A stretch of DNA of 64,000 bases from Anaerolineae bacterium (GCA_025454475.1 JALOOJ010000001.1:6015-70014), one strand, 5' to 3'; counted from the stretch's first letter, positions 1 through 12,440 are shown. The notes: generated by a model not told the origin, from the sequence alone. Made by a program: numbers and translations.

Positions 1-408
1 GTGCCACCGGCTGGGGCTGAGGTGCCCGTACAGCGAATAAAGGTTAGTTAGGGGGTGGTCCACGATGACCAGCCATCCATACCCGCCGGCCCATCCCGAG
101 AAGCTGACACGTCCATCCGCCATCGCGAAGACCGGCGTTCCGGCCGACCGGTGGTAGTCCTCCGCCGCATGGTACATATGGGTCGGCGAGGACCCTACGC
201 TCGCCTCGCCAAACGATACGTGGTCCTCCGCGTCTCTGATGGGCGACGCATCGAGGGGAAAGCGGAAGGGGAGAGCGTCCGTGGCAGCGATCTCGTCGGC
301 CCGGGAAAGTCCGACAGGTTCGGTCGAGGGACACGAATCTGCGCGTTGAGCGCAACCGGAGAGGGCCAACAACAGGCTGAGACAGGCCCTCAGCCGATGA
401 CTAGCCAC
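1..408 (-). CDS. M23/LytM-family metallopeptidase lipoprotein; C-terminus runs off the left edge of the window
   Basis: Hand translation of the minus strand gives a lipoprotein signal from a GTG at 406-408 (VASHRLRACLSLLLALSGCAQR, lipobox LSGC), then M23 peptidase motifs HMYHAAEDYHRSAGTPVFAMADGRV...GYGWLVIVDHPLTNLYSLYGHL. Not in the ORF track because no stop lies inside the window. Confidence 0.55.
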   Translation of the reverse strand, partial: MASHRLRACLSLLLALSGCAQRADSCPSTEPVGLSRADEIAATDALPFRFPLDASPIRDAEDHVSFGEASVGSSPTHMYHAAEDYHRSAGTPVFAMADGRVSFSGWAGGYGWLVIVDHPLTNLYSLYGHLSPSRWH

Positions 409-543
409 GTCTCGAGTCCTTTCGGCACGACCTGAACAAGCCGGGGTGCTGGCGGACCTATCGTGCTACCAAGCTATTGAGTATGCGGGTTAGGTCACGG
501 AAGGGGCACCAACCACCTGGATGCAAACGCACCCCAAGCGACA

Positions 544-666
544 TCAGGACGGTCGGTACGCCGAACGAGAAAACAATGGGAGCGTACTCCAGACGATGGT
601 GGCGAGGAGGGACAGGAGGATAAAGAGCCAGGGATGTCCTACGAGCACAAATCTCCCTCTTGCCAT
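544..666 (-). CDS. 40-aa hydrophobic micro-protein (MARGRFVLVGHPWLFILLSLLATIVWSTLPLFSRSAYRPS), about 60 bp downstream of the rSAM gene
   Basis: ATG preceded by GAGGAG with a 6-nt spacer; single predicted TM helix; it is the C-terminal part of track ORF 544..1137. No family recognised. Confidence 0.3.
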   Translation of the reverse strand: MARGRFVLVGHPWLFILLSLLATIVWSTLPLFSRSAYRPS

Positions 667-728
667 GCGAAACTCCTCGCATGAACATTGGCTACCTGAA
701 TCCATTATAGGCCGTGCCGTCACGCCTG

Positions 729-1805
729 TCAACCGAATCGTCCGGTTCGGGATGACCCTCTCTGACCTTCTTGGCTCAGTATGGGACGCGCCCAGTCGAG
801 GTTCGCCTGCAGGAAGGGCTCCGGGACGCTCAAATCGCCGTAGCACACCTGAGCGGAGGCCTTGCACCCGCCCTGGCACTCGTCCTTCAGGGTGCATGGG
901 GTGCAGAACGTGGGTGTTGCCGCGGCAAAGCCGGCGATGCGTTCCGGGGCGAGGATGTCGGCAAGGGGCTCCTCCCAGACGTTGCCCAGCATGGTCGGGG
1001 CGTGATTGCACGGCCGCACGTTGCCGGCGGCATCGAAGGTGGGGTAGGCGCGGCCAGACCCTGCGGCGCAGAAACCAAATCCCAGGTGCGGATAGGCAGT
1101 GGGATCGATCAGGCAAGGTTGAATGGGGATCGAGCACGAGATAGGCAGGCGCAGCACCTGTGACGCACTCTCGGCAACCTCGAGCGCCTCGCGCATTTCG
1201 CCAAGCGTGGGCAGCAGGTCGAGATGGGCACTTCCACGCCCGCCGGGGTTAAAACGGTTGAGCATCACGCCACGCACCCCAAAGGCCGCAGCCAGCTTGA
1301 GCGTGTCGTGGAGATCACCGATGTTGCGTCGTGTGGCAACGAACACGGCAACGGCCTTTCCGCGATGGGTGCGGATGTGCGCCAGCGCCGCCAGTACGGC
1401 GTCGAACGCGCCAGGCGCGGCCGATAGCTCATCGTGCGCCTCGCGGCGATAGCTCAACAGCGGCAGCTCGAACAGCGCCACACCCCGCCGGATCAGGTCG
1501 GCCACCGTCAACTCATCGAGCCGGTGGCCGTTGGTGATCAGGTTCACCTGCGCCAGGCGCGCGGCGAAGCTTACGATATCGGGCAAATCGTCCCGCAGCA
1601 GCGGCTCACCGCCGGTCAGCGTGACGTGGTGACAATCGACCTGCGCCAGCACGTGGGCAAGTAGAGGCCGTACGTCGACCGGTGCCGCAGTGACCGCAGC
1701 CGCAGCGGCCTGCGGGTGGTTCCAGATGTTGTAGCAGTGGCTACAGGCGTGATCGCAGGCCTGGGTCACCTCCAGGATGACGGTCTGCAGGCGCGGACGT
1801 GACAC
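729..1805 (-). CDS. radical SAM / SPASM-domain enzyme (peptide- or protein-modifying maturase type)
   Basis: N-terminal CDHACSHC (Cx3Cx2C) radical SAM cluster motif and GGEPLL; C-terminal SPASM cysteines (CAAGSGRAYP...RPCNH...FCTPCTLKDECQGGC = Cx2Cx5Cx3C). GTG start with AGGAAG RBS, 11 nt after the upstream gene stop. Confidence 0.85.
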   Translation of the reverse strand: MSRPRLQTVILEVTQACDHACSHCYNIWNHPQAAAAAVTAAPVDVRPLLAHVLAQVDCHHVTLTGGEPLLRDDLPDIVSFAARLAQVNLITNGHRLDELTVADLIRRGVALFELPLLSYRREAHDELSAAPGAFDAVLAALAHIRTHRGKAVAVFVATRRNIGDLHDTLKLAAAFGVRGVMLNRFNPGGRGSAHLDLLPTLGEMREALEVAESASQVLRLPISCSIPIQPCLIDPTAYPHLGFGFCAAGSGRAYPTFDAAGNVRPCNHAPTMLGNVWEEPLADILAPERIAGFAAATPTFCTPCTLKDECQGGCKASAQVCYGDLSVPEPFLQANLDWARPILSQEGQRGSSRTGRFG

Positions 1806-1816
1806 CGGAAAGCTTC

Positions 1817-2464
1817 CTATTGCCGACCCAACAGCACCTCGACCAGGATGCGAGCGGCCTCGAGCGCAGAGGGCGGCACATCCAGATCGAGCTCCTGCAG
1901 GCTGGGATAGGCCATACTGCCGGCGGCAGCCTCGACAACCGCCTCGACCAGCGCGGCCTCGGCATCATCGGAAAGCGCGAGGAAGGCCATGTCTCGCTCG
2001 ATCGCGCCCCGGACCTGATCAACAATGGCCTGATCGATGCCGCTGCGTCCCGCCATCTCGTCCAGTAACGCGGCCTGCTGCACCAGATCGCTGCTGCTCT
2101 GAACGCCGTACTCGGGATAAAAGGATGGCTCATAGCAGGTGATCGGGGCATTGGCGCGCCACACGTGGGTGCTGGCACCCTCAAAGGCCGCCTGCAGATC
2201 GTCCGCTACGTCCCCATCGACGTCACCACCTGCGACCAATCTGTCAAGCGTGCTACGATGGTCAGCCACAAGCCGGTCTCGGGTTCGCTCACCCTTGTCC
2301 GCGTCTTGGGCATCTCGGGCCAGCCGATCGAGGCCGATCCAGGCGTCGCGAACCCCTGCCCAGGGCTCGTCCCTTACACGCGAAGGAGGCACGCAACGCA
2401 CGACGAGCAGAGATGCCACTGCCACGCCCAGGGAACGCACGAACTCACGCCGAGTAGGAGACAT
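1817..2464 (-). CDS. TAT-signal (twin-arginine) acidic, predicted helical secreted protein of unknown function
   Basis: MSPTRREFVRSLGVAVASLLVV twin-arginine signal peptide; AAGGAGGG RBS; stop 11 nt before the rSAM start, so same operon. Only two Cys (VVRCVPPSR, ITCYEPS). Confidence 0.6.
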   Translation of the reverse strand: MSPTRREFVRSLGVAVASLLVVRCVPPSRVRDEPWAGVRDAWIGLDRLARDAQDADKGERTRDRLVADHRSTLDRLVAGGDVDGDVADDLQAAFEGASTHVWRANAPITCYEPSFYPEYGVQSSSDLVQQAALLDEMAGRSGIDQAIVDQVRGAIERDMAFLALSDDAEAALVEAVVEAAAGSMAYPSLQELDLDVPPSALEAARILVEVLLGRQ

Positions 2465-2492
2465 CTCGCCCTCCTTAGGCTGAGGCGTTCAG

Positions 2493-4298
2493 TCAACCCA
2501 GACTGTGCGCGCCTGTCCGTACATAGTTAACGCAGAAGACCGCAGGCATTGCTGGCTCATCGGCGTGGGGTAAGTCCGCGCCTTCGAACCGGTTGGTGTC
2601 CAACGTAGGCTCGCGCCTTCGTGGCCCCGTGCGGAAGACAAGCCGCTCCACGGTGCGGACCGGCATCGCCAGCGCCCCACCTTCGATGAGCGGTCGATCG
2701 TCCAGCTCCAGATCGAACTGGTGAATCCCCGCGTCGATCCTCACCCGAACCTTGAGCCAAGCGCGGGGTCGGTAGATACCCGCGCTCACAAGGTGTCCCC
2801 CTTCCTTGACCCTGATGATCCCATCGGCGTCCAACACGATCAGGACGGCCAACCGACCTCCGCCGTCCACGACCTCGACCTGGAGCTGCCCGACGCCGGT
2901 ATGGCGCGCGGTCACCTTGAACTCGATGGTCACCCGCGCACTCTCCGGGAAGACCCGCTCAGCCTTGGCATAGTCGTAGGGGTCGTAGTCTCTGAGCTCG
3001 AGACTTCGGTTGTCCGCGCTGGGGAAGGCAATGACGGACACCGGCGCCCATCGCGGGCTGTAGATGTTCCAGTTCGGGATCAGGCCGCCGGGTTCCACTT
3101 CGTTGAACGTGTCGTCGACGGGTTCGTCCACGGCCCACCTGACGGGCACCGGGATGCGGCTGACCCATATGTCTTCCTTATTCATGCTATAGGCCACCCA
3201 TAGGCCCTCATCCGGTGGCAGCCCATTGCCCTCCGCGATCCCGCGCACGTAGTTCTGTCCAAAGTCCTTGTAGGTGCCGATGTACCGGCGGGGCGGAACC
3301 TCGCCGCAGACGCAGAGCAGATTGTCGAAGGCGACTCCATCCTCCCCGCTGACGAGCGCCAGGGGCCACCGATGACTGCCGTCCGGGTTGGGGTTGTAGA
3401 CCAAAGCGTAGGCGCCATCGGACGTGCGCTGGCCCCAGATCTTGGCGCCGCTCATCACCAGCGACGGAACATCCCCCGTGGTCCAGCTCGCGCCCTCGTC
3501 GGCGCTGATCCCGGCCCTGGAGAACTTCCACAGGCCAATCACGCGCCCATCGGGTAGATGGTAATAGGATAGCGCCTTGCCGCCCTCCACCGCATAGAAC
3601 CCGTCGGAGCTGCGATCCTCCTCCCACCACTGAAGCGTCATCAGTTTGTCTGCCAGCAGGGCGTCACACGCTGCTACGAAACCAGCATCCCCCGATGTCT
3701 GGTAGAACGGAAAGGGCGTGTTCATCTCATCCCAGCCGGCGTGACGGTTATAACGCAGGAAGTAGATCGGGCCAAAGCTATCACCGGCGCGCACCTCGCG
3801 CACCACACGGCCTAAGCCCATGCCGTCATTAGGCCCGCCGAGCGTTACGGGGGCACACCCGTAGAAGCCCAGCACGAGCAGTCGACCATCCGGCGCACCA
3901 TAGAACCCCATCCGCTGGTGCATCACCGCCTGGCTGTACGGCGGGAGCGGGTAGCCCTGGTAGACGCCCTCCGGCACATCGATGACCGGGAATACGACCT
4001 CCGGCTTTCCCCAGTGCAGGCCGTCTGCGGACGTGGTCAGCAGCGTGTGCCCAGGCGGCACGTGCTCCCCGATTGGGTTGCTCAGGTACTCCAGGTAGAA
4101 CCGCCCATTCCAGTAGGCCAACATGGGCGCGTGGTTATAGGTCCATCCGAAGCCATCCGCGCGGTCCGGGTGGGAGCGGTTGGCGCGCAAGACCTGGTAG
4201 GAGTGCACACCCACCGCAGGCCGAAGCTGACCGTCGTGATAGTCGGTGTTCGCGGTCTCGGTGCCGAGATAGCGCACAATCTGCGATGAAAGATCCAT
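2493..4298 (-). CDS. hypothetical protein, sialidase/BNR-like beta-propeller plus C-terminal ConA-like domain (possible glycoside hydrolase), no signal peptide
   Basis: 601-aa ORF starting at MDLSSQ (ATG at 4296-4298, strong GGAGGAGG RBS) rather than the track start. The propeller-like sequence impression (WTYNHAPMLAYWNGRFYLEY, repeated G/W-rich blades) is weak; I cannot assign a family. Confidence 0.5.
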   Translation of the reverse strand: MDLSSQIVRYLGTETANTDYHDGQLRPAVGVHSYQVLRANRSHPDRADGFGWTYNHAPMLAYWNGRFYLEYLSNPIGEHVPPGHTLLTTSADGLHWGKPEVVFPVIDVPEGVYQGYPLPPYSQAVMHQRMGFYGAPDGRLLVLGFYGCAPVTLGGPNDGMGLGRVVREVRAGDSFGPIYFLRYNRHAGWDEMNTPFPFYQTSGDAGFVAACDALLADKLMTLQWWEEDRSSDGFYAVEGGKALSYYHLPDGRVIGLWKFSRAGISADEGASWTTGDVPSLVMSGAKIWGQRTSDGAYALVYNPNPDGSHRWPLALVSGEDGVAFDNLLCVCGEVPPRRYIGTYKDFGQNYVRGIAEGNGLPPDEGLWVAYSMNKEDIWVSRIPVPVRWAVDEPVDDTFNEVEPGGLIPNWNIYSPRWAPVSVIAFPSADNRSLELRDYDPYDYAKAERVFPESARVTIEFKVTARHTGVGQLQVEVVDGGGRLAVLIVLDADGIIRVKEGGHLVSAGIYRPRAWLKVRVRIDAGIHQFDLELDDRPLIEGGALAMPVRTVERLVFRTGPRRREPTLDTNRFEGADLPHADEPAMPAVFCVNYVRTGAHSLG

Positions 4299-4651
4299 GG
4301 ATTCCTCCTCCCCATAGGCCTTGTCGAAACGGGACAACACCAGACGAGGTCGCGATCCCGCAAGCGGATCGACCCGAGCGACACTAACTATTGTATACGA
4401 GATCACTTTGGCCACAGAGCGCCCCGCCCCGCGCCCCTTGCGAAGGTCCGGAGAACTGCGGAGGACTGACTGCACCGTTACAGAATCCCGCTGATCGGAA
4501 GAGGATAAGCTAAGACCAGCTTGCCCACGTCGCCCAGAGCCGATGGCAGCAGAGGCTTGACCACTTTCGTCACGAAGCTACTGTCAATGTACTGATCCGA
4601 AGGGCCTCCGTTCTTGTCTTCATACCCGGCGAACGACCGGTCGCCGGCCCC

Positions 4652-4679
4652 TTGACAGGGCCAACGTGCTCCTATAATG
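4652..4679 (+). promoter_or_regulatory. consensus sigma70-type promoter TTGACA-16-TATAAT
   Basis: TTGACA at 4652-4657, 16-nt spacer, TATAAT at 4674-4679; about 140 bp upstream of the ATG at 4823. Confidence 0.6.
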
Positions 4680-4822
4680 AAGCATGTAGGGATGGTGCCC
4701 TCTGTTTCCACACCACGCCAACGCCCCGGTCACCTCGCCCTGAGCTTTGCATTTGGGCCGTTCCCACGCCGCACGACGCAGGAGACGCCCTCTTCTATCA
4801 GCGACGCTGGAGGCGAGGATCC

Positions 4823-6787
4823 ATGGACAACCGCCACCATGGCCGGACGACGCTCTCCTCAGCACTCGCGTTGAGTGTCGTGCTCGTGATGGCTGTCAGC
4901 CTGGGCGAGATCGCTCCCATCAGGCCCGGCATCTCCACGGGCGAACGTCCGGCCTCGCCGCTGGCGGGTTCTATCAAACGGGCGAGTTCCGCCATCGCCA
5001 TCACCGCCGATGGGCTGACCCTCGCAGCTGCAAACCCCGACTCCAACTCGGTCACATTGGTCAACGCCGCCACCCGCAGCGCACTTGCCGAGATCGGCGT
5101 AGGGATCGACCCACGCATGGTCGCCATCGATGAGGGCCACAACCGGCTGTATGTCACCAGCAGGGGCGATGACCGCGTCACACTGATCGATCTTGCCTCG
5201 CTGCAGGTAGTCACCGCGACGCAGACCGGCGGCCAGCCCTATGGGATCGTGGTGGACGCTGCCGGGCAGCTGCTCTACGTGGCGGAACAGGGGGCCGATC
5301 GCATCGCCGTGCTGGACGCTTTGACACTCGACCGGGTCGCGGCTTACCCGACCGCGGACCGGCCCAGTGGACTGGCGCTGTCGGCCGATGGACGGACGTT
5401 GGTCGTCACCCACCTGCTCACCAACACCCTCACGATCCTCACCGTCCGGCCCTTCACGGCCTACCTGCCTCTCCTCATTCGCGAAGGCATCACGACCGCT
5501 GTGTCCGGCGGTACACGAGCCACAGGAACCATCTGGGCTGCGAACATCCCAAGCACCACACTCTCGCTCTGGCCCGACAGCAACCTAGTGCAGTCCATCG
5601 TGATCGCGCCGGACGGGCAGCGGGCCTATGTGGTGCACACCCGCTCGAACACCGGAAACCGTGCCCTGACCTTCGACACGACCGTTTTCCCGGTCGTCTC
5701 GCTGATCGACCTCCCCAGCCGGCGACATCTGCTAGGACAGCAGTTCGACCTGGGCACATTCGATCCGCCGGGGGTGGGATTACCCTTCGATGCCGCACTC
5801 ACCCCGGATGGGGCTCAGCTCTGGGTGGTGAACGCCGGCAGCAATGATGTGACGGTGATTGACCTGACCACTCGGCAGCGCGTGGCGCATATCGAGGTGG
5901 GCGACAACCCGCGCGGCATCGCCTTCGCCCCGGATGGGTCGGAGGCCTACGTCAACGCCACGCTGGCGGGCACGGTCGAGGTGCTCAGCGCTGGCACCTA
6001 CACCATCACGGCGGTGATCACCGCGACCGAAATCCCCCTCCCCCCGGTGCTGCTCAACGGCAAGCGGCTGTTCAACTCCAGCGATGACCCGCGAATGGCG
6101 CGGGCTCAATGGATCAGCTGCGCCACGTGTCACTTCGAGGGTGAGCACGACGGCCGGACTTGGTTCTTCGGTTTCGCCGGACCGCGCAACACGACCAGCC
6201 TCCTGGGTATGATCGAGACCTATCCCCTGCGCTGGTCGGGGGAGTGGGATGAATCCGCGGATTCCGAGTTCGCGGTCCGCCAGGAGAACTTCGGTTCAGG
6301 CCTGATCACCGGCGAGCTGTATTGCGCATTGATGCCCCTGGATTGCGTCCACCAGCCCCCGAACCAGGGCAGATCCGACGACCTGGATAGCCTGGCCGCG
6401 TTCATTGACTCGCTGAGGATCCCGCTCAGTCCGACGCACGCCCACGGTGAGCCACTCAGCGCGGCGGAAACGCGCGGGCAAGCGAGCTTCCATATCCCGA
6501 CGCTGGGCTGCGTGACCTGCCACCCGCCGCCGTTGTATACCGATCTGCAGGCACACGATGTCGGCACCGCCACCGACGACGAGCGCATCGGCCCGGCCTA
6601 TGACACGCCCTCGCTGCGGGGCCTGTATGGCAGCGCACCCTACTTCCACGATGGCAGCGCCGGCACACTCCATGCGGCACTCACCCGCCCTACGCCCAAC
6701 AGCGAACACGATGTGTCTGAGAAGCTGACGGAGACGGAGACAACGGAGCTGGTTGAGTTTTTGCTGGCTCTGCCGTTCCAGCCTTGA
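4823..6787 (+). CDS. secreted YVTN-family beta-propeller fused to a di-heme cytochrome c peroxidase / MauG-family domain
   Basis: Start moved to MDNRHHGRTTLSSALALSVVLVMAVS (signal peptide; GGAGGCGAGGA RBS). N-terminal repeated YVTN-type blades (LYVTSRGDDRVTLIDL, LYVAEQGADRIAVLD, LWVVNAGSNDVTVIDL). C-terminal CATCH and CVTCH heme motifs plus PSLRG and PYFHDGS CCP signatures. Confidence 0.85.
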   Translation: MDNRHHGRTTLSSALALSVVLVMAVSLGEIAPIRPGISTGERPASPLAGSIKRASSAIAITADGLTLAAANPDSNSVTLVNAATRSALAEIGVGIDPRMVAIDEGHNRLYVTSRGDDRVTLIDLASLQVVTATQTGGQPYGIVVDAAGQLLYVAEQGADRIAVLDALTLDRVAAYPTADRPSGLALSADGRTLVVTHLLTNTLTILTVRPFTAYLPLLIREGITTAVSGGTRATGTIWAANIPSTTLSLWPDSNLVQSIVIAPDGQRAYVVHTRSNTGNRALTFDTTVFPVVSLIDLPSRRHLLGQQFDLGTFDPPGVGLPFDAALTPDGAQLWVVNAGSNDVTVIDLTTRQRVAHIEVGDNPRGIAFAPDGSEAYVNATLAGTVEVLSAGTYTITAVITATEIPLPPVLLNGKRLFNSSDDPRMARAQWISCATCHFEGEHDGRTWFFGFAGPRNTTSLLGMIETYPLRWSGEWDESADSEFAVRQENFGSGLITGELYCALMPLDCVHQPPNQGRSDDLDSLAAFIDSLRIPLSPTHAHGEPLSAAETRGQASFHIPTLGCVTCHPPPLYTDLQAHDVGTATDDERIGPAYDTPSLRGLYGSAPYFHDGSAGTLHAALTRPTPNSEHDVSEKLTETETTELVEFLLALPFQP

Positions 6788-6823
6788 CCCCGTACGGAGG
6801 GTATCCGTACCAGGAGGCTCGCC

Positions 6824-9800
6824 ATGCGCAAGATGATGGTTGTGTTTCTCTCCCTGTTCGGACTACTGGTCCTGAGTGCGGCGCTGCGAGCAGCGGAAGC
6901 AACGCCGCAGCCCGCTGCACCGCGCGACGCTGATCCGGCGCCTCCGGCTGAGGCACTGGACCTGTCGGCTAGCATCGTCGTCTCGGGCACCGTCTTCGGG
7001 CCTGGCGGGGGCGTCCCCAATGTCAGCATCCGGATTTCATCAGGTGTCGGCCCGCAGACAAAGATCACGGATGCCAACGGTTTCTACAGCGCCACCGTTC
7101 TCTCCGGCTTAATCGAGTTCGAGGTCCGACCTCCCCTCGTCACCCGCCTGAGCCAGATCAACACGGCCAGCGACGGCGCGCAGAGCGATTTCACCCAGAA
7201 CTTCACGGTGACTGCGGGCAGCCTGCTCAGCATGGTACCCGTGGGGACAGGCGGAGAGCCAATCACCGATACCGTCCTGCTGCGCGTGTGGCCCCTGCAA
7301 GCTGAGTTGACGGGGCTCACGTGGTATGAGATGGACTGGCAGGCCGCTTCTCAGCGGTTCGAGGCCGTGTTGCCGCAGGACGTGACCTACCTCAAGATCG
7401 CCCGGGTGCCCGAGGGCTACTATACGACCTTCGTGCCGGTGGATCTGCGCAGCGGCGATGTCACAGTGAACATCCCGCTCAACACCCACTATGTGCCCAT
7501 GCCGCCTGTTGACCCGCCCGATGCATCGAAGATCACGTTCGGCCCCCCCGATGAGCTGGGCGAGGTGACGGTGACGGGCGGACCCGGTGCGGTGATGCCA
7601 CTGGCACGGGTCTTTCTCAACAACCTGAACAGCATGCACCAGGCCTATGCCGTTTCGGGAGCCGACGGCAGCTTTACGGCCCGCATCTGGGCTCCGCCGG
7701 GTTCCAACATCCTCATCAAGCATGGCCCCAGCGGCTACTCCGCCGCGCCGGACGAAAGCTGGCCCGGTCTGAGCAATGGCCTGCCGGGGGGCAAAGTCAC
7801 CGTGCTTCCGGGCACGATCCTATTTGTGCCGTTTGACGTTCCCGCAGCGCCGGGGGACTTGCCCTTCGCGACGGCAGGCGCCGCTCAAAAGCACCTCGAT
7901 CTGGCCGCGGAGACGCGGGACTACGTCGGTGCGGCTTGGACGTTGACGGGGGTGGTGCATCCCCTGGGCAACGGCAGCTATGCGCTTAGCAGCACGCTGC
8001 GTCTCTATAGCCACGCACTCACGCTAAGCACCGATCTCGGCGCGATTCACACCCCAGGGTCTTTGAGCGTGTTGATGCAGCACAACGCTGATGGCCAACC
8101 TTTGGCCCACAAGAACCGCTTCGTGTCCACACTCCTCTCACCCACCGGGCTGCCCATCGAGACGGCAGCCCTGCCTACGCTGCAGTGGGGTGTTCCCGTG
8201 GACGGTATGAGCTGGCGCCACGTGAGTGAGCACGTCATCGAGGGCGACCTGGGCTGCACCTTTGTGATCAGTGACGACCTGCCAGGCATCTACCGTCCGC
8301 GTATCCAGTTCGCGGCGTTCGAGTCGGGTATGAGCGGGGTCCCGACCGACACGACCTGGCTGGCCTCCGAGGTCGAGACCTTTCAGAGCGCGCCTGACCA
8401 GGCGCTCCTACCCCCCATCGCCATCGGGGAGGTGGCGCGGCCGCGGCTGATCTGGCACCTGCTGACCAACACGTGGGTGCAGGGGCAGCGTGGCATCGGC
8501 GCCATCGGGGACCGCGATACCTTCGGGCTGGTCACTGAGATTGTCACCCAGGGGGATGTCTTCATCGTGCCGCCCGTGGAGGAGGTCACGGGGGAGCCCA
8601 TCACGTACCGGTTGGAGCCCTTCCTGCCCATGATCTCGTACGCGGATAGGGCACAGCCCGGGCCGCCGTATATCCCGTTCGAGCTGCCGGGCGGCGAGCT
8701 CCACGTCGTCGTCCGGAGGCCCGATGGGCAAGTGGTGGACCTCGGAACGGAACCCTTCGCCCAGTCTCTCGCGCAGACGCCCAGCACGGTCTCGGGGCAC
8801 GACGACAACCAGGGCACGCAGCAACTCGACGACGTCTACGCAGTGCGCGCGGCCTCCGAACGGTTCGCCTTCGTCTTTGAGCAGTATGGACGCTACGTCA
8901 TCACGATGACCGGCGTACTCGAGGATGTATGGGGCAACGTCTACACAGGGGGCGGCACGTACGAGGTGTGGGCAGCGCAGCCGCTGGACATTGACCCCGG
9001 CATGATGCCCGGCACACCCTTTGCGATCGGCGATGTCCTCAACCCCACCCTCCAGGTGTACCCGCGCGTCGGCGCCGAGGTGAGTCTGAGGATACGTCAG
9101 TATCAGGGATGGCAGCCCGCAGCGGTGGTCCTTGATCGCACCGTCGTGGGGACCGCAAACGCCTACGGCACCTTCACCCCCGAGATCGTGCCACCCATCA
9201 GGTTCACGGAGCCGGGCGAGTACCGCGTCGATCTGACGACAAGGTATTGGGATGAAGCCGGCAGGCTCAGGATGGGGGTGATGACATGGGGCGGCGTGGT
9301 GATGACACCACCGGCGCAGGCCGATCTGATCGCCCACGGGCGGCGCGGCTACGATGTGGGCACGTTCCCCGATATGACCTGGTTCGTGGGCCTGCGCGAC
9401 GTGGTCCTGCCCGCTGGTGTGGTGTCACACCTGCACGCGCCGTACTTCGCCGGCGACATTATCTGGAGCCGCATGGAGGATGGACTCTACGGCGACTCGC
9501 TGATCCTCAATCCGGGCCTCCAGGACACGACCGGAGGATACTGGTCCGAGCTGCTTCTGGATCGCGCCGTCCACATGCGGCTTGAGGGTATGGCGCCCAA
9601 CGACCTCCAGACGCGCGTTGATCGGGGCGAGATCCCCGTCTTCTTCAGCACAACCACGGGCAACGCCCCGCAGGTGGACCCCACCGTTCTCGATCAGGCC
9701 GCCTATGCCTATGAGTCCTCGCAGCGGCCCGGCGTGCGGGTCCGAGAGTACCTGGGCGACGATAGTCCGATAGCTTATTGGCGGCTCGACACAACCTACG

Positions 9801-10816
9801 ACGACCAATTAGGCGTGGGGGTAAAGGGAGACCAACCGAACGACTACAAGCTCCAGTACCTCGGCGTCGTCTTCCACGATCTGCCGAGTGGGCATAGCGA
9901 GTATCTGGGCTACGCCTCCAGTTGGGTACACCTGCCCGACGCCGACCCCTTGGGTAGCCGCGTGATGCCGCCTTTCGCCGGTGAGGGCAACGGCGGCTGG
10001 ACGACCGAAGGCGGCCCGATTATGACCCTCAAGGGCGAGGACATCCATATCTTCATCCAGCCCACCGGCGTCCAGCCCGGTGCCGTGCTCAATCCGGGAG
10101 ATATGTTCCGCTTCGCAGGTCATGTCAACCCCACGCTGGCCAGTCAGGTGGCCATCACCGTCACGGCACCCAGCGGCACCAAGTATCTCCGCGGCGGTCA
10201 GGCGGATTCCGTGGGCTACTTCTACGACCCTGCCGACAACTTCCCCGTCACCGAGCCGGGGCTGTGGTCGGTTGACGTCCACGTGTGGCACGACGGTGTG
10301 TGTTCCGCGGGCGCCACAATCCCGCCCTACCCACAGGGGGACGTGCTGGGTAGCGAGGGCGGTCGGTACTATTTCTACGTGGTATTTGATGACGCGCTCA
10401 GGCTGGGTGTCACCTCACCGCAGCCAGGCTATCTGCACTTCAGCGACATCGTCACGCCGGTCGAGATCACCGGCCCTGTGCCCCCAGGCCTGAGCAACGT
10501 GACGGTGGACTACACCATCGCTATGCCCGGCTTCATCCTAAGCCATGGCCAGGTGACGCCTGTGAACGGTGCCTACCACATCCTGTTCGATCCCACCGCC
10601 CTGGCCCAGGACTTTCCCAACCTCGATCTGATCAGCCGCGGCGATCTCGATGTACCGGGGTTGTCGGACACGTTCGCGATCGGGCTGCTGCTGCGTGGCC
10701 AACGCGGCGAGGAGCCGGTGTACCGCGCATCTGCCATCACGATCCAGGGGCAGCAGGTGTACGTGGACAATCCGCCCCCGGGGATCAGCGTCTTCCTACC
10801 GTTGGTGGTGAGGTAG
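6824..10816 (+). CDS. 1330-aa secreted protein of unknown function with N-terminal carboxypeptidase-regulatory-like (CarboxypepD_reg) domain
   Basis: Signal peptide MRKMMVVFLSLFGLLVLSAALRAAEA; SGTVFGPGGGVPNVSIRISSGVGPQTKITDANGFYSATV matches the CarboxypepD_reg pattern. No CxxCH, no HExxH. 37 bp after the previous gene and 5 bp before the next. Confidence 0.75.
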   Translation: MRKMMVVFLSLFGLLVLSAALRAAEATPQPAAPRDADPAPPAEALDLSASIVVSGTVFGPGGGVPNVSIRISSGVGPQTKITDANGFYSATVLSGLIEFEVRPPLVTRLSQINTASDGAQSDFTQNFTVTAGSLLSMVPVGTGGEPITDTVLLRVWPLQAELTGLTWYEMDWQAASQRFEAVLPQDVTYLKIARVPEGYYTTFVPVDLRSGDVTVNIPLNTHYVPMPPVDPPDASKITFGPPDELGEVTVTGGPGAVMPLARVFLNNLNSMHQAYAVSGADGSFTARIWAPPGSNILIKHGPSGYSAAPDESWPGLSNGLPGGKVTVLPGTILFVPFDVPAAPGDLPFATAGAAQKHLDLAAETRDYVGAAWTLTGVVHPLGNGSYALSSTLRLYSHALTLSTDLGAIHTPGSLSVLMQHNADGQPLAHKNRFVSTLLSPTGLPIETAALPTLQWGVPVDGMSWRHVSEHVIEGDLGCTFVISDDLPGIYRPRIQFAAFESGMSGVPTDTTWLASEVETFQSAPDQALLPPIAIGEVARPRLIWHLLTNTWVQGQRGIGAIGDRDTFGLVTEIVTQGDVFIVPPVEEVTGEPITYRLEPFLPMISYADRAQPGPPYIPFELPGGELHVVVRRPDGQVVDLGTEPFAQSLAQTPSTVSGHDDNQGTQQLDDVYAVRAASERFAFVFEQYGRYVITMTGVLEDVWGNVYTGGGTYEVWAAQPLDIDPGMMPGTPFAIGDVLNPTLQVYPRVGAEVSLRIRQYQGWQPAAVVLDRTVVGTANAYGTFTPEIVPPIRFTEPGEYRVDLTTRYWDEAGRLRMGVMTWGGVVMTPPAQADLIAHGRRGYDVGTFPDMTWFVGLRDVVLPAGVVSHLHAPYFAGDIIWSRMEDGLYGDSLILNPGLQDTTGGYWSELLLDRAVHMRLEGMAPNDLQTRVDRGEIPVFFSTTTGNAPQVDPTVLDQAAYAYESSQRPGVRVREYLGDDSPIAYWRLDTTYDDQLGVGVKGDQPNDYKLQYLGVVFHDLPSGHSEYLGYASSWVHLPDADPLGSRVMPPFAGEGNGGWTTEGGPIMTLKGEDIHIFIQPTGVQPGAVLNPGDMFRFAGHVNPTLASQVAITVTAPSGTKYLRGGQADSVGYFYDPADNFPVTEPGLWSVDVHVWHDGVCSAGATIPPYPQGDVLGSEGGRYYFYVVFDDALRLGVTSPQPGYLHFSDIVTPVEITGPVPPGLSNVTVDYTIAMPGFILSHGQVTPVNGAYHILFDPTALAQDFPNLDLISRGDLDVPGLSDTFAIGLLLRGQRGEEPVYRASAITIQGQQVYVDNPPPGISVFLPLVVR

Positions 10817-10820
10817 CGCG

Positions 10821-12440
10821 ATGCGCCATAGGGCGGGGGCAGTCTATCTCGTGCTGGTCATCGCGGCCACTATGCTCGGTGCATTATGGTTGCTCGCCAC
10901 CGGTGCTGCCCGTTCCGCAGCGACTGCTATCGTCAGCGGCAGGGTCGTGCGCCTGGATGGCCAACCCGCCGCAGGTGCCTGGGTGCGCGTGCAGACCACC
11001 GAGAACCTCACCACTGCTGCAGCCGACGGCAGCTTTTCGCTGGCTGACCTGATCGAGGGCACGACCGTCACGATCACCGCCTGGTATCCCGATCACAAGG
11101 TGGGCTGGGCTGCGGTCGTGCCCCCTAGCGCCGGCATCACGATCACGGTGAGACCCTACGATACCCGCGACAACCCCGGCTACGAATGGAACACCTCCTA
11201 TCCCGATCCGGCAAACCCCACGTTGGGCTGCGGTCACTGCATGGCACCCTCATTTGATGAGTGGCAACGCACGGCGCACGCCCAGGCAGGCACCAACCCG
11301 CGCTTCTTCTCCCTGTACAACGGGACGGACATCACCGGCACCCTCGTGATCTCGCCGGGCTACACACTGGACTTCCCCGGCACCGCAGGCAATTGCGCCA
11401 CCTGTCATGCGCCGGGCGCCGGATACGACGCGCCTTTCACCACCAATATGAACACCCTCACCGGCGTCGACCAGGAGGGCGTCTTCTGCGAGTTCTGCCA
11501 CAAGGTCGGGACAGTGTACCTGAATCCCGCCACGGGCCGGCCCTATGACAACGCGCCGGGCACCGTCTCGATGCGCCTCTACCGCCCTTACGCGGACGAT
11601 CAGATCTTCTTTGGCAGTGTGGACGACGTGGCACGGCGCGTGAGCTACCTGCCGCTGGAACGGCGGAGCCAGTTTTGCGCGCCGTGTCATCAGTTCTCCT
11701 TCTGGGGCACGCCCATCTACGAGAGCTTCGCCGAATGGCAGGCGAGCCCCTATCCGGCCCAGGGAATTGAGTGCCAGGCCTGCCATATGCCCCCAGGAAC
11801 CAGCCCCACCTTCTGCCTGCCCGAGAAGGGCGGATTGGCCCGCGACGCCTCGCGGCTGGCCTCACACCTGGACCTGGGCGTGAAGGATACGGCCTTCATG
11901 CAGAGCACGGTGGCGATGACGGTCACGGCGGCCCCAGTGATAGGCGCGGTGGAGGTCAGCGTGACCCTGACCAACGTTGGCGCGGGGCACCACGTCCCCA
12001 CCGACTTTCCCGGACGGCATATGATTCTCACCGTCGCCGCCACGAATGCCTCGGGAGATGCCCTCGTGCAGGTCAGCGGTCCCACTGTGCCCGATTGGGG
12101 TGGTCCGCAGGCTGGAGGGCCGGGCAAGGCCTTCGCCAAGATCCTGCAGGACGTGACTACCGGCGAATCGCCCGTGGTCAGCTATTGGAAACAGACTCGT
12201 ATCGTGAGCGACAATCGCCTGCCGGCTATGGGCAGCGACACGTCAACCTATACCTTCGCGGCGCCGGATTCCGGCGGACCGGTCACGGTGACCGCCGAAC
12301 TGCGCTTCCGGCGGGCCTTCGCGCAAGTGATGCACGATAAGGGCTGGCCCGACGATGATGTCTCGATGGCGCTGGGACAGGTCAGCCTGACAACAGCGCC
12401 CTGGTGGCGCGTGCACCTGCCGCTGGTGTTGCGCCGGTAG
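10821..12440 (+). CDS. membrane-anchored/secreted multiheme c-type cytochrome with N-terminal CarboxypepD_reg-like domain
   Basis: N-terminal hydrophobic segment; SGRVVRLDGQPAAGAWVRVQTTENLTTAAADGSFS CarboxypepD_reg-like; four canonical CxxCH (CATCH, CEFCH, CAPCH, CQACH) plus one CGHCM. Confidence 0.8.
   Translation: MRHRAGAVYLVLVIAATMLGALWLLATGAARSAATAIVSGRVVRLDGQPAAGAWVRVQTTENLTTAAADGSFSLADLIEGTTVTITAWYPDHKVGWAAVVPPSAGITITVRPYDTRDNPGYEWNTSYPDPANPTLGCGHCMAPSFDEWQRTAHAQAGTNPRFFSLYNGTDITGTLVISPGYTLDFPGTAGNCATCHAPGAGYDAPFTTNMNTLTGVDQEGVFCEFCHKVGTVYLNPATGRPYDNAPGTVSMRLYRPYADDQIFFGSVDDVARRVSYLPLERRSQFCAPCHQFSFWGTPIYESFAEWQASPYPAQGIECQACHMPPGTSPTFCLPEKGGLARDASRLASHLDLGVKDTAFMQSTVAMTVTAAPVIGAVEVSVTLTNVGAGHHVPTDFPGRHMILTVAATNASGDALVQVSGPTVPDWGGPQAGGPGKAFAKILQDVTTGESPVVSYWKQTRIVSDNRLPAMGSDTSTYTFAAPDSGGPVTVTAELRFRRAFAQVMHDKGWPDDDVSMALGQVSLTTAPWWRVHLPLVLRR

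Follow-up and report, generated by a model that had tools for sequence, protein, structure and literature searches.

Radical SAM enzymes share a partial TIM-barrel core and a CX3CX2C motif that binds the SAM-cleaving [4Fe-4S] cluster, and the SPASM subfamily is further recognised by a seven-cysteine motif (CX9-15GX4C ... CX2CX5CX3C ... C) which, with an eighth cysteine upstream, accompanies two auxiliary [4Fe-4S] clusters. The anSMEs (AtsB/ChuR) act in the cytoplasm on full-length, export-bound sulfatases, in which they read a short linear Cys motif, C/S-x-P/A-x-R, without a leader peptide. QhpD introduces a number of Cys thioether crosslinks within QhpC, a small, dedicated and exported protein encoded adjacent to it, which is the gamma subunit of quinohemoprotein amine dehydrogenase. 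PqqE, which forms a Glu-Tyr C-C link in PqqA, and MftC, which performs Val-Tyr chemistry on MftA, a peptide with a terminal Val-Tyr, both act at a Tyr of a peptide of 20-30 residues. Classical RiPP systems rely on a short leader-core precursor, a PqqD-like RRE fused or adjacent to the maturase, and a linked protease or transporter. Finally, the Haft-type systems pair an uncharacterised SPASM enzyme with a neighbour in which a Cys motif recurs or which has a lipoprotein signal; among them we take TIGR04340 to work with ACGX-repeat peptides and TIGR04133 to represent a radical SAM/lipoprotein pair.

The locus described here lies in a window of 64,000 nucleotides of an Anaerolineae bacterium. On its minus strand, a SPASM-type radical SAM enzyme (729-1805, 358 aa, GTG start; MCU0519075.1, annotated by NCBI as 'radical SAM protein') is encoded after a partner protein and putative substrate (1817-2464, 215 aa; MCU0519076.1, 'hypothetical protein'). 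The functional unit is this two-gene cassette, partner first and dedicated enzyme second, and non-random association within the window is limited to the pair. Two further genes on the same strand fall outside the cassette, namely a propeller gene upstream (2493-4298, annotated by NCBI as 'exo-alpha-sialidase') and a hydrophobic 40-aa micro-ORF downstream (544-666). An earlier note on this DNA placed all four reading frames correctly, apart from small corrections to the propeller length (601 aa, not 600) and to the intergenic gaps (28, 11 and 62 nt from the propeller to the micro-ORF, rather than 29, 11 and about 60).

The same note took the four genes for a likely single operon in which the radical SAM enzyme might act on the 40-aa micro-peptide, or the propeller might participate. 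Their common strand, the short gaps and a GAGGAG 6 nt ahead of the micro-ORF ATG speak for such an arrangement. However, a sigma-70-like promoter match (TTGACA-17-TATAAT; 704-732, minus strand) overlaps the stop codon of the enzyme gene upstream of the micro-ORF; it agrees at 12/12 positions, is the sole such site in 4.8 kb, and is predicted to separate the cassette from the micro-ORF and an M23 unit. The micro-ORF lies within the leader region of a downstream M23 lipoprotein-peptidase gene. In relatives of 70-78% identity no homolog of it is found 3′ of the enzyme gene, where unrelated genes stand instead, tblastn returned no match in about 35 related loci, and a collection of 15 billion proteins includes its neighbours as called genes but not this exact sequence. 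The micro-peptide contains no Cys, and its proposed role as a substrate fails because the micro-ORF is unconserved, uncalled and placed behind a promoter-like site of its own. The M23 gene itself encodes a canonical lipobox (LSGC), unlike the 'xRC' of the partner.

The propeller gene, a same-strand neighbour 28 nt upstream of the partner gene, could be extended to a GTG at 4475, and NCBI likewise adopts the start that gives 601 aa. Its product matches PF24067 (BT_1020-like beta-propeller, E 6e-106), PF22585 (sialidase-like CBM, E 7e-39) and PDB 5MQR (E 1.6e-157 across residues 8-595), and is a cytoplasmic protein homologous to the first ~600 residues of BT1020 (PDB 5MQR), with a sialidase-fold beta-propeller and a CBM; these domains would place it in the GH143/BT1020-like group. 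No propeller homolog occurs in the roughly 35 related loci, and its inclusion in the system was accordingly abandoned. Since neither the micro-ORF nor the propeller is conserved, and both are missing from every related locus, the four-gene operon is for practical purposes refuted.

The linkage of the two cassette genes is, on the other hand, firmly established. A survey of 27 partner-seeded GTDB species loci and 6 enzyme-seeded look-ups placed them together in about 30 independent loci of Chloroflexota. In these, 1-3 tandem partner genes precede the enzyme gene, which begins -4 to +21 nt beyond the last of them. Three loci depart from this spacing: one has a frameshifted third partner copy between partner and enzyme (L015), one has an inserted ParE/HTH toxin-antitoxin pair (L038), and one lies at a contig end (L031). 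All-versus-all clustering of the flanking ORFs of the related loci yielded no third shared gene, and the remaining neighbours vary from locus to locus. The pairing extends to Planctomycetota, whose orthologous enzyme is 46% identical to that of the window and follows six tandem partner paralogs at one locus (L039) and, at another (L035), a single protein of 1478 aa that the partner profile matches eight times. Partner dosage per enzyme thus varies from 1-3 genes to six paralogs or an eight-match protein. This strict pairing across loci bears out the co-conservation of enzyme and signal-bearing partner that the earlier note had set as a check. A full-text literature search returned nothing on the pair.

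The enzyme has a clear radical SAM domain (PF04055, E 1e-14, 55.5 bits against a Pfam cut-off of 29.5), and its SPASM domain match (PF13186, 20.9 bits) falls slightly under the cut-off of 21.5. The CX3CX2C motif for the SAM-binding [4Fe-4S] cluster (C17, C21 and C24; 1734-1757, minus strand) is invariant in an alignment of 30 homologs, including the Planctomycetota ortholog, and the AF2 model (pLDDT 89.8) resembles known radical SAM structures. In the SPASM region (843-1115, minus strand), eight cysteines (C231, C246, C266, C301, C304, C310, C314 and C321) are likewise invariant in the 30 homologs and form the complete pattern C246-x14-G-x4-C266, C301-x2-C304-x5-C310-x3-C314 and C321 with C231 upstream, while C224 is nearly invariant. 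The CX3CX2C and CX2CX5CX3C motifs (the latter C301/304/310/314), already read from the window sequence, are therefore established as conserved cluster-binding residues; on the model of anSMEcpe, the eight SPASM cysteines would be enough for full ligation of two auxiliary [4Fe-4S] clusters. The PDB folds closest to the model are those of the SPASM/Twitch enzymes SkfB, PqqE, SuiB, ChlB and anSMEcpe (TM 0.65-0.71, 13-19% identity). Neither Pfam nor the AF2 model reveals an RRE, the peptide-recognition domain, as the core starts at about residue 8 with no added N-terminal domain.

GDGT-MAS stands among the weaker structural matches of the enzyme (TMq 0.48), which would fit the alternative of lipid or envelope chemistry, in which the enzyme would act on lipids, as the SPASM enzymes Gms, GrsA and Tes do, with the partner as a membrane-tethered accessory or scaffold and not as its substrate. 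The partner does appear from its N-terminus to be membrane-anchored, and lipid-modifying SPASM/Twitch enzymes are known in Planctomycetes (PMC11214058). However, in bacteria gms is found clustered with tes or mss (PMC11214058), no lipid-synthesis gene is linked to the cassette at related loci, and such chemistry leaves the invariant and repeated Cys-Tyr motif of the partner and its variable copy number unaccounted for; we regard this alternative as very improbable.

By an HMM search against NCBIfam, the enzyme lies outside the characterised families, as had been proposed: it reaches no curated cut-off, its best scores being 60-85 bits against cut-offs of 265-650. The best sequence matches are to PqqE (TIGR02109, 85.2 bits against 381; PDB 6C8V, E 1.7e-9) and MftC (TIGR03962, 69.8 bits against 265). 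The invariant Tyr of the partner motif fits the Tyr chemistry of these enzymes, but no PqqD or MftB RRE partner or further pathway gene accompanies the cassette: pqq genes are absent from the window flanks and related loci, no mft genes are linked, and the putative substrate is exported and 215 aa long. The best 25 NCBIfam matches, each of them below cut-off, do not include anSME. The enzyme shares with anSMEs the length (~360 aa) and the lack of an RRE, and would share the two auxiliary clusters and, as proposed below, leader-independent cytoplasmic action on a full-length export-bound protein through a short linear Cys motif; it aligns structurally over its whole length (TM about 0.70), yet at 13-14% identity. 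The partner, in contrast, has no sulfatase domain and its motif is T-C-Y-x-P; one protein can bear several sites, and one enzyme can be accompanied by several partner genes. A QhpD/QhpC system is equally rejected, with no such match within the enzyme's best 25, none for the partner, and no qhp-type neighbours; the partner is helical, much larger than and dissimilar to QhpC, bears 1-3 Cys-Tyr sites and a Tat or Sec signal, and has no linked QhpE/QhpF-type peptidase or exporter and no dehydrogenase subunits. The Haft-type families TIGR04340 and TIGR04133 give weak matches (54 and 50 bits against cut-offs of 400 and 425), and their partner families are unrelated to the one described here, which has no NCBIfam match. 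AhbD, NirJ and AhbC, radical SAM enzymes of siroheme or heme d1 pathways, score 78, 72 and 61 bits where the cut-offs are 500-650, with no conserved heme-pathway neighbours.

The partner, which begins with MSPTRREFVRSLGVAVASLLVVRC, is acidic (pI 4.4), contains two Cys and is predicted to be all-helical, much as first described. It matches no family in Pfam, NCBIfam or the PDB, in line with the view that it is neither a sulfatase nor QhpC-like, and represents a new family. Tat substrates carry an N-terminal S/T-R-R-x-F-L-K motif and a moderately hydrophobic h-region, and are exported by TatABC. The window partner has T-R-R-E-F-V-R followed by a 13-residue h-region, and this Tat-like signal (2393-2464, minus strand) ends at Cys24. 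In the partner alignment C24 is invariant, and R5, R6 and F8 nearly so. The TIGR01409 score of the window partner is sub-threshold (11.5 bits against 16.7), with weak matches in 22/36 family members (best E 0.0014). Bacterial lipoproteins have a signal peptide that closes with a lipobox, [LVI][ASTVI][GAS]C. The window partner does not have it in canonical form but has V-V-R-C; 'xRC' fills the Cys24 column in about 85% of Chloroflexota homologs, lipobox-like SGC, AGC or TGC occur there in some, and Planctomycetota partners have FGGSGC or FGGAGC. Planctomycetota partners have no RR motif and carry Sec/lipoprotein-like or transmembrane N-termini instead; the role given to Tat, folded export of a modified protein, therefore cannot be general.

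These N-termini also bear on a second alternative, that the enzyme makes or tailors a small-molecule cofactor, for instance of tetrapyrrole type, which the partner receives as an apoprotein, possibly covalently at Cys110, before Tat export. Tat signals typically belong to proteins whose folding or cofactor loading takes place in the cytoplasm, and H69, H100, C110 and Y111 are all invariant in the Chloroflexota partner alignment. The partial NCBIfam matches to AhbD and NirJ nearly equal that to PqqE and, as scores for PqqE, GeoRSP, AhbD and NirJ are all about the same (72-85 bits), small-molecule (tetrapyrrole) chemistry is still compatible with the sequence. Nevertheless, Sec/lipoprotein-like or transmembrane N-termini imply unfolded export, at odds with cytoplasmic cofactor loading; both His are apparently not kept in the repeats of the 1478-aa protein, as read by eye from the unaligned sequence; the additional Cys-Tyr motifs lie in Pro/Thr linkers that are disordered and offer no binding pocket; flanking-ORF clustering found no co-conserved cofactor-pathway genes; and the top structural neighbours of the enzyme are peptide-modifying. 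We consider the cofactor route unlikely.

The Cys-Tyr dipeptide is the sole universal feature of the partners, kept across Chloroflexota and Planctomycetota loci, and its conservation is well established. In the window it belongs to the core motif N-A-P-I-T-C-Y-E-P (residues 105-113; 2126-2152, minus strand), whose C110-Y111 pair, the proposed modification site, is placed in a loop between predicted helices 84-105 and 119-139. Throughout 239 family proteins, Tyr follows 348/797 Cys (44%), against a Tyr frequency of 0.023, and a motif logo was built from 343 Cys-Tyr sites. In the 1478-aa Planctomycetota protein, 9/10 Cys are Cys-Tyr (p about 1e-15), and homologs bear extra 'P-T-C-Y-x-P' copies in Pro/Thr-rich, disordered linkers.

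Core-like motifs that recur, and several precursor genes in tandem, are characteristic of RiPP loci, and the partner might be a precursor that is cut into short modified Cys-Tyr peptides released as natural products, the helical domain serving as leader or recognition element. The minimal repeated unit of the Planctomycetota proteins, the Cys-Tyr motif and the next ~45 residues (profile positions 118-169), could likewise be a follower or recognition segment. Yet the export signal is on the whole partner, the helical domain is better conserved than a usual leader and has the motif inside it, and flanking-ORF clustering gave no co-conserved protease, transporter or RRE/PqqD gene. A RiPP precursor is accordingly quite improbable, and a classical RiPP system was rejected, given an enzyme with no RRE, no linked PqqD, protease or transporter, and a partner that is predicted to be a folded protein of 215 aa.

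We favour, with a probability of roughly 0.6, the reading that the enzyme modifies the Cys-Tyr site of its partner before export. Synteny, variable dosage, Cys-Tyr retention, the 3 + 8 cluster cysteines, peptide- or protein-modifying fold neighbours and an anSME-like length and architecture all argue for it. Synteny, copy number and the repetition of the motif lead us to infer a substrate in the partner, and the proposal of a novel maturase-substrate pair has held up in the tests of both family membership and co-conservation. The cytoplasmic enzyme, using SAM and three [4Fe-4S] clusters, would act on Cys-Tyr within a short linear motif with the consensus (P)-x-T-C-Y-x-P/A. The helical domain carries one copy of this motif, in a predicted exposed loop, and in many homologs it recurs in a Pro/Thr-rich tether immediately behind the membrane signal. 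Lacking an RRE or other leader-binding domain, the enzyme may read the local motif directly, as anSMEs do with sulfatases. The modified protein would then be exported, by Tat in Chloroflexota and through Sec/lipoprotein-type signals in Planctomycetota, and would probably remain tethered to the membrane on its outer face.

The chemistry is most likely oxidative, a crosslink or oxidation initiated by H-abstraction and centred on the Cys-Tyr pair. As a rough ranking, a thioether from the Cys sulfur is the tentative first candidate, a Tyr-centred C-C or C-O link in the style of PqqE and MftC is possible but less probable, and a formylglycine-type oxidation of the Cys is doubtful. To our knowledge, there is no precedent for a crosslink confined to adjacent Cys and Tyr residues, and the signal-adjacent Cys24 is likewise invariant, which counts against a reading centred on Cys-Tyr. 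The putative relation between enzyme and substrate is also one of guilt by association. A folded domain of ~190 aa, as in the partner, is atypical for SPASM substrates, and the partner might be a carrier, a chaperone or a cofactor recipient instead.

The cassette is a previously uncharacterised two-gene unit conserved in two bacterial phyla, in which a dedicated SPASM radical SAM enzyme would modify its exported partner.

The four open reading frames that the earlier note had placed on the minus strand of the window, which derives from an Anaerolineae MAG, were all found to be real. They encode, in minus-strand order, a 601-aa propeller protein (2493-4298), a 215-aa protein with a Tat-like signal (1817-2464; hereafter the partner), a 358-aa SPASM radical SAM enzyme with a GTG start (729-1805; hereafter rSAM), and a hydrophobic 40-aa micro-ORF with a GAGGAG Shine-Dalgarno sequence (544-666), separated by intergenic gaps of 28, 11, and 62 nt. 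The first three are named “exo-alpha-sialidase,” “hypothetical protein,” and “radical SAM protein” by NCBI, respectively; an upstream GTG extension of the propeller gene to 4475 is possible, and the NCBI start also gives 601 aa. The traits attributed to the two central products were recovered as well, i.e., CX3CX2C and CX2CX5CX3C motifs in rSAM, and TRREFVR with a hydrophobic stretch, a pI of 4.4, and two cysteines in the partner. Neither a second partner copy nor any other twin-arginine protein was found within the 64-kb window. The proposal of the earlier note stood only in part: the core pair of partner and rSAM is real and the four-gene operon is not, the propeller and the micro-ORF being absent from related loci.

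Conservation was tested from both ends, using partner-seeded and rSAM-seeded collections of loci. The partner-seeded scan, covering one genome per GTDB species, yielded 27 loci, all labelled as Chloroflexota-type MAGs except three, whose labels are probable binning errors, and rSAM-seeded look-ups (homologs of 60-78% identity) added six further contexts. In L020, L021, and L028, a Chloroflexota-type cassette (partner gene or genes plus rSAM) lies on MAGs labelled “Rickettsiales” and “Halioglobus,” which probably reflects mis-binned contigs and not horizontal transfer. Chloroflexota loci carry one, two, or three tandem partner copies, and rSAM starts -4 to +21 nt after the last partner gene in all loci but three (tblastn and HMM checks). 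These exceptions are L031, where the contig edge is reached, L015, where a frameshifted third partner copy separates the second copy from rSAM, and L038, the sole locus where the pair is broken by foreign genes, namely a ParE toxin/HTH antitoxin pair (3362-3987) inserted exactly between partner and rSAM. The third copy of L015 (5291-6552), split by the frameshift just past a PMVCYD motif, represents a pseudogene or else a fault in the assembly. Genes around the pair vary between loci. All-versus-all clustering of the flanking ORFs of 31 loci revealed no third shared component (protease, transporter, PqqD, or Tat genes), the high-ranking extra clusters being shadow ORFs that overlap both genes or synteny limited to a subclade. 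The neighbourhood check that had been proposed for rSAM and the Tat-like protein finds the pair kept across loci and the other flanking genes not. The want of a linked protease or transporter also counts against a rival model in which the partner would be the peptide precursor of a cleaved RiPP.

Neither the propeller nor the micro-ORF has a counterpart in any related locus, where tblastn searches relaxed to an E-value of 50 returned only noise, and the genes found 3′ of rSAM in relatives of 70-78% identity are unrelated to those of the window. Two ideas of the earlier note, that rSAM acts on the micro-peptide and that the propeller is a component of the system, were abandoned on this conservation test. 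A micro-ORF match in L014 (7801-7866, E 9) is suggestive in position but precedes an unrelated gene and was rejected. A 12/12 match to a sigma-70-like promoter (TTGACA-17-TATAAT, 732-704, minus strand) lies across the rSAM stop codon, upstream of the micro-ORF. It is followed by a leader of ~280 nt containing the micro-ORF, and then by an M23 lipoprotein peptidase gene (about 1-417, minus strand), the next one downstream, whose signal ends in LSLLLALSGC and which runs off the window start. The exact micro-ORF peptide matches no called gene in a collection of 15 billion proteins in which its three neighbours are present; it may serve the M23 peptidase gene as a leader or regulatory ORF, or be spurious. 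As for the propeller, it is homologous to the N-terminal ~600 residues of Bacteroides BT1020 (PDB 5MQR, E 1.6e-157; Pfam PF24067 and PF22585), a region that we take to be the GH143 domain of the rhamnogalacturonan-II locus; BT1020 itself is an extracytoplasmic enzyme encoded in a pectin-degradation locus. The propeller combines a sialidase-fold propeller with a CBM and is presumably cytoplasmic because it has no signal peptide. It is a glycosidase-like neighbour outside the cassette system. Divergent from its gene, the region 4652-12440 on the plus strand is a possible extracellular redox cluster, made up of a 711-aa protein in which a beta-propeller is joined to a di-haem CCP/MauG-like domain (two CxxCH), a secreted protein of 1330 aa that lacks informative domains, and a third protein, of 539 aa, that has four CxxCH (cytochrome c554/c7-like) and a CarboxypepD_reg domain.

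The enzyme itself is matched by Pfam Radical_SAM and, at the borderline, by SPASM. Its best NCBIfam scores (PqqE 85, GeoRSP 83.5, TIGR04053 80, AhbD 78, NirJ 72, and MftC 70 bits) are far under the cut-offs of 265-515 bits, and therefore no curated family claims it; the HMM check suggested earlier thus found no placement in a characterised family. In 30 homologs, C17, C21, and C24 are invariant, as are eight further cysteines (231, 246, 266, 301, 304, 310, 314, and 321), which would be enough to ligate two auxiliary clusters fully. The solved structures closest to its confident AF2 model (pLDDT 89.8) are SkfB, PqqE, SuiB, ChlB, and anSMEcpe (TM 0.65-0.71, 13-19% identity), which all modify peptides or proteins; none of them is close. 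Since the core begins at about residue 8, rSAM has no RRE (peptide-recognition) domain, and no linked PqqD-like gene emerged when the flanking ORFs of 31 loci were clustered. With the Chloroflexota query, 942 homologous proteins were listed at E≤1e-3.

The partner family, represented by 589 clusters at 50% identity, was characterized by alignment and a cysteine census. The N-terminus is Tat-like and ends in an invariant Cys, Cys24 of the window partner, found as “xRC” in most Chloroflexota and as lipobox-like SGC, AGC, or TGC in some. The Pro/Thr-rich tether carries zero to two copies of “P-T-C-Y-x-P,” and an invariant core, “N-A-P-I-T-C-Y-E-P,” is located in the loop that joins helix 84-105 to helix 119-139. 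C110 and Y111 of the window partner fall within the tryptic peptide ANAPITCYEPSFYPEYGVQSSSDLVQQAALLDEMAGR; RPTCYTPVPPTP, from a partner homolog, exemplifies the linker-type motif peptide, and homolog P0030 has two linker motifs. Thr occupies position -1 in 81% of 343 Cys-Tyr sites and Pro or Ala position +3 in 68%, while Tyr, which makes up 2.3% of residues, follows 348 of the 797 Cys in 239 family proteins. A large Chloroflexota subclade (e.g., P0042, P0046-P0051) has an extra conserved Cys in “R-L-R-x-C-W-L,” in the column of window A41 and directly N-terminal to the invariant Trp42; this Cys, which supplies most of the family's 118 Cys-Trp pairs, may take part in a disulfide or serve as a second site.

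Counterparts were found in Planctomycetota. At L035 (8001-12437), a 1478-aa protein, P0354, contains eight partner-profile matches behind a Sec-like or transmembrane N-terminus, or six long matches plus three short linker-type units when the profile is run with filters off (--max), and nine of its ten Cys belong to Cys-Tyr dipeptides (p about 1e-15). Its units are joined by Ala/Thr/Pro/Gln-rich linkers. Directly after its gene comes a 350-aa SPASM rSAM that is 46% identical to that of the window and keeps every cluster Cys; homologs of this enzyme number >1300 at E≤1e-60, the named ones being Planctomycetota or Phycisphaerae. At L039 (993-5844), each of six consecutive genes upstream of one rSAM is hit by the partner profile (E 3e-15 to 4e-8) and encodes Cys-Tyr motifs. 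Their N-termini alternate between lipobox-like sequences (FGGSGC, FGGAGC) and double transmembrane anchors, and none of the six has a twin-arginine motif; one 104-aa gene consists of the minimal Cys-Tyr unit only. At L040, the gene overlapping the rSAM start by 4 nt ends with a C-terminal “PSCYAMA” and matches the partner profile weakly (E 0.02). By eye, Thr at -1 is substituted in Planctomycetota motifs (VMCY, VECY, GKCY, PMCY). Also by eye, both invariant His of Chloroflexota partners are apparently absent from the Planctomycetota repeats; a His/His/Cys/Tyr metal site is weakened as a candidate, H69 and H100 apparently not being kept in the repeats of P0354. Together, these loci indicate that partner and rSAM stay paired even as phylum, export signal, and domain architecture change; common to both phyla are a membrane anchor, a Pro-rich tether, a helical unit, and Cys-Tyr. 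A model in which the partner is loaded with a cofactor, consistent with the Tat signal and with the partial AhbD/NirJ matches of rSAM, fits poorly with Sec-type Planctomycetota partners and with motifs lying within linkers. An alternative role of rSAM as a lipid modifier is unlikely: Gms-like enzymes are present in Planctomycetes, but the tes or mss genes with which theirs are reported to cluster (PMC11214058) are not linked to the cassette, and the Cys-Tyr motif would be left unexplained.

We give slightly under even odds (about 0.45) to the reading that the cassette installs an undescribed modification, which could be a local thioether/aryl crosslink or a protein-derived redox cofactor, on the Cys-Tyr of exported, membrane-tethered helical proteins that form a new family and are widespread in both Chloroflexota and Planctomycetota. 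SPASM enzymes start by abstracting hydrogen from their peptide or protein substrate, after which they build thioether, C-C, or C-O crosslinks or carry out an oxidation of Cys or Ser. The tight two-gene linkage, with each enzyme accompanied by one to six putative substrate genes, or by eight repeats, suggests that rSAM acts on the partner, probably at the Cys-Tyr site and in the cytoplasm, ahead of export. Because motif copies occur in disordered linkers and rSAM has no RRE, the motif may be recognised locally without a leader, by analogy with anSME. The chemistry must centre on Cys and Tyr, as only those two residues are universal; a thioether, a Tyr-centred link, and Cys oxidation are all candidates. 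PqqE and MftC, the nearest sequence relatives of rSAM, both act at Tyr.

Systems that pair a SPASM rSAM maturase with a dedicated substrate encoded next to it are already known as a general kind. Few SPASM enzymes modify whole proteins and not short peptides, the textbook cases being anSME and QhpD. We rate the present system as set apart by its substrate being protein-sized, seemingly leader-independent, multi-copy, and found in two phyla. The rSAM clade, the partner family, and the Cys-Tyr motif are absent from the curated libraries consulted (NCBIfam June 2026, Pfam 2025), and full-text literature searching found no description of the partner-rSAM pair. A large uncharacterised rSAM clade is locked to a new exported-protein family, and Cys-Tyr as the sole universal partner feature offers a precise hypothesis, cheap to test in terms of residue, peptide, and mutants. 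A short motif that needs no leader for its recognition could also find use in enzymatic protein tagging, much as happened with the formylglycine tag of anSME and FGE. If the favoured reading is true, the cassette would be a new rSAM protein-maturation system beside anSME-sulfatase and QhpD-QhpC, its T-C-Y-x-P motif would be portable enough for disordered linkers, and a new protein modification, perhaps even a crosslink or cofactor derived from protein and not seen before, would be added to the envelope biology of two abundant, poorly cultured phyla.
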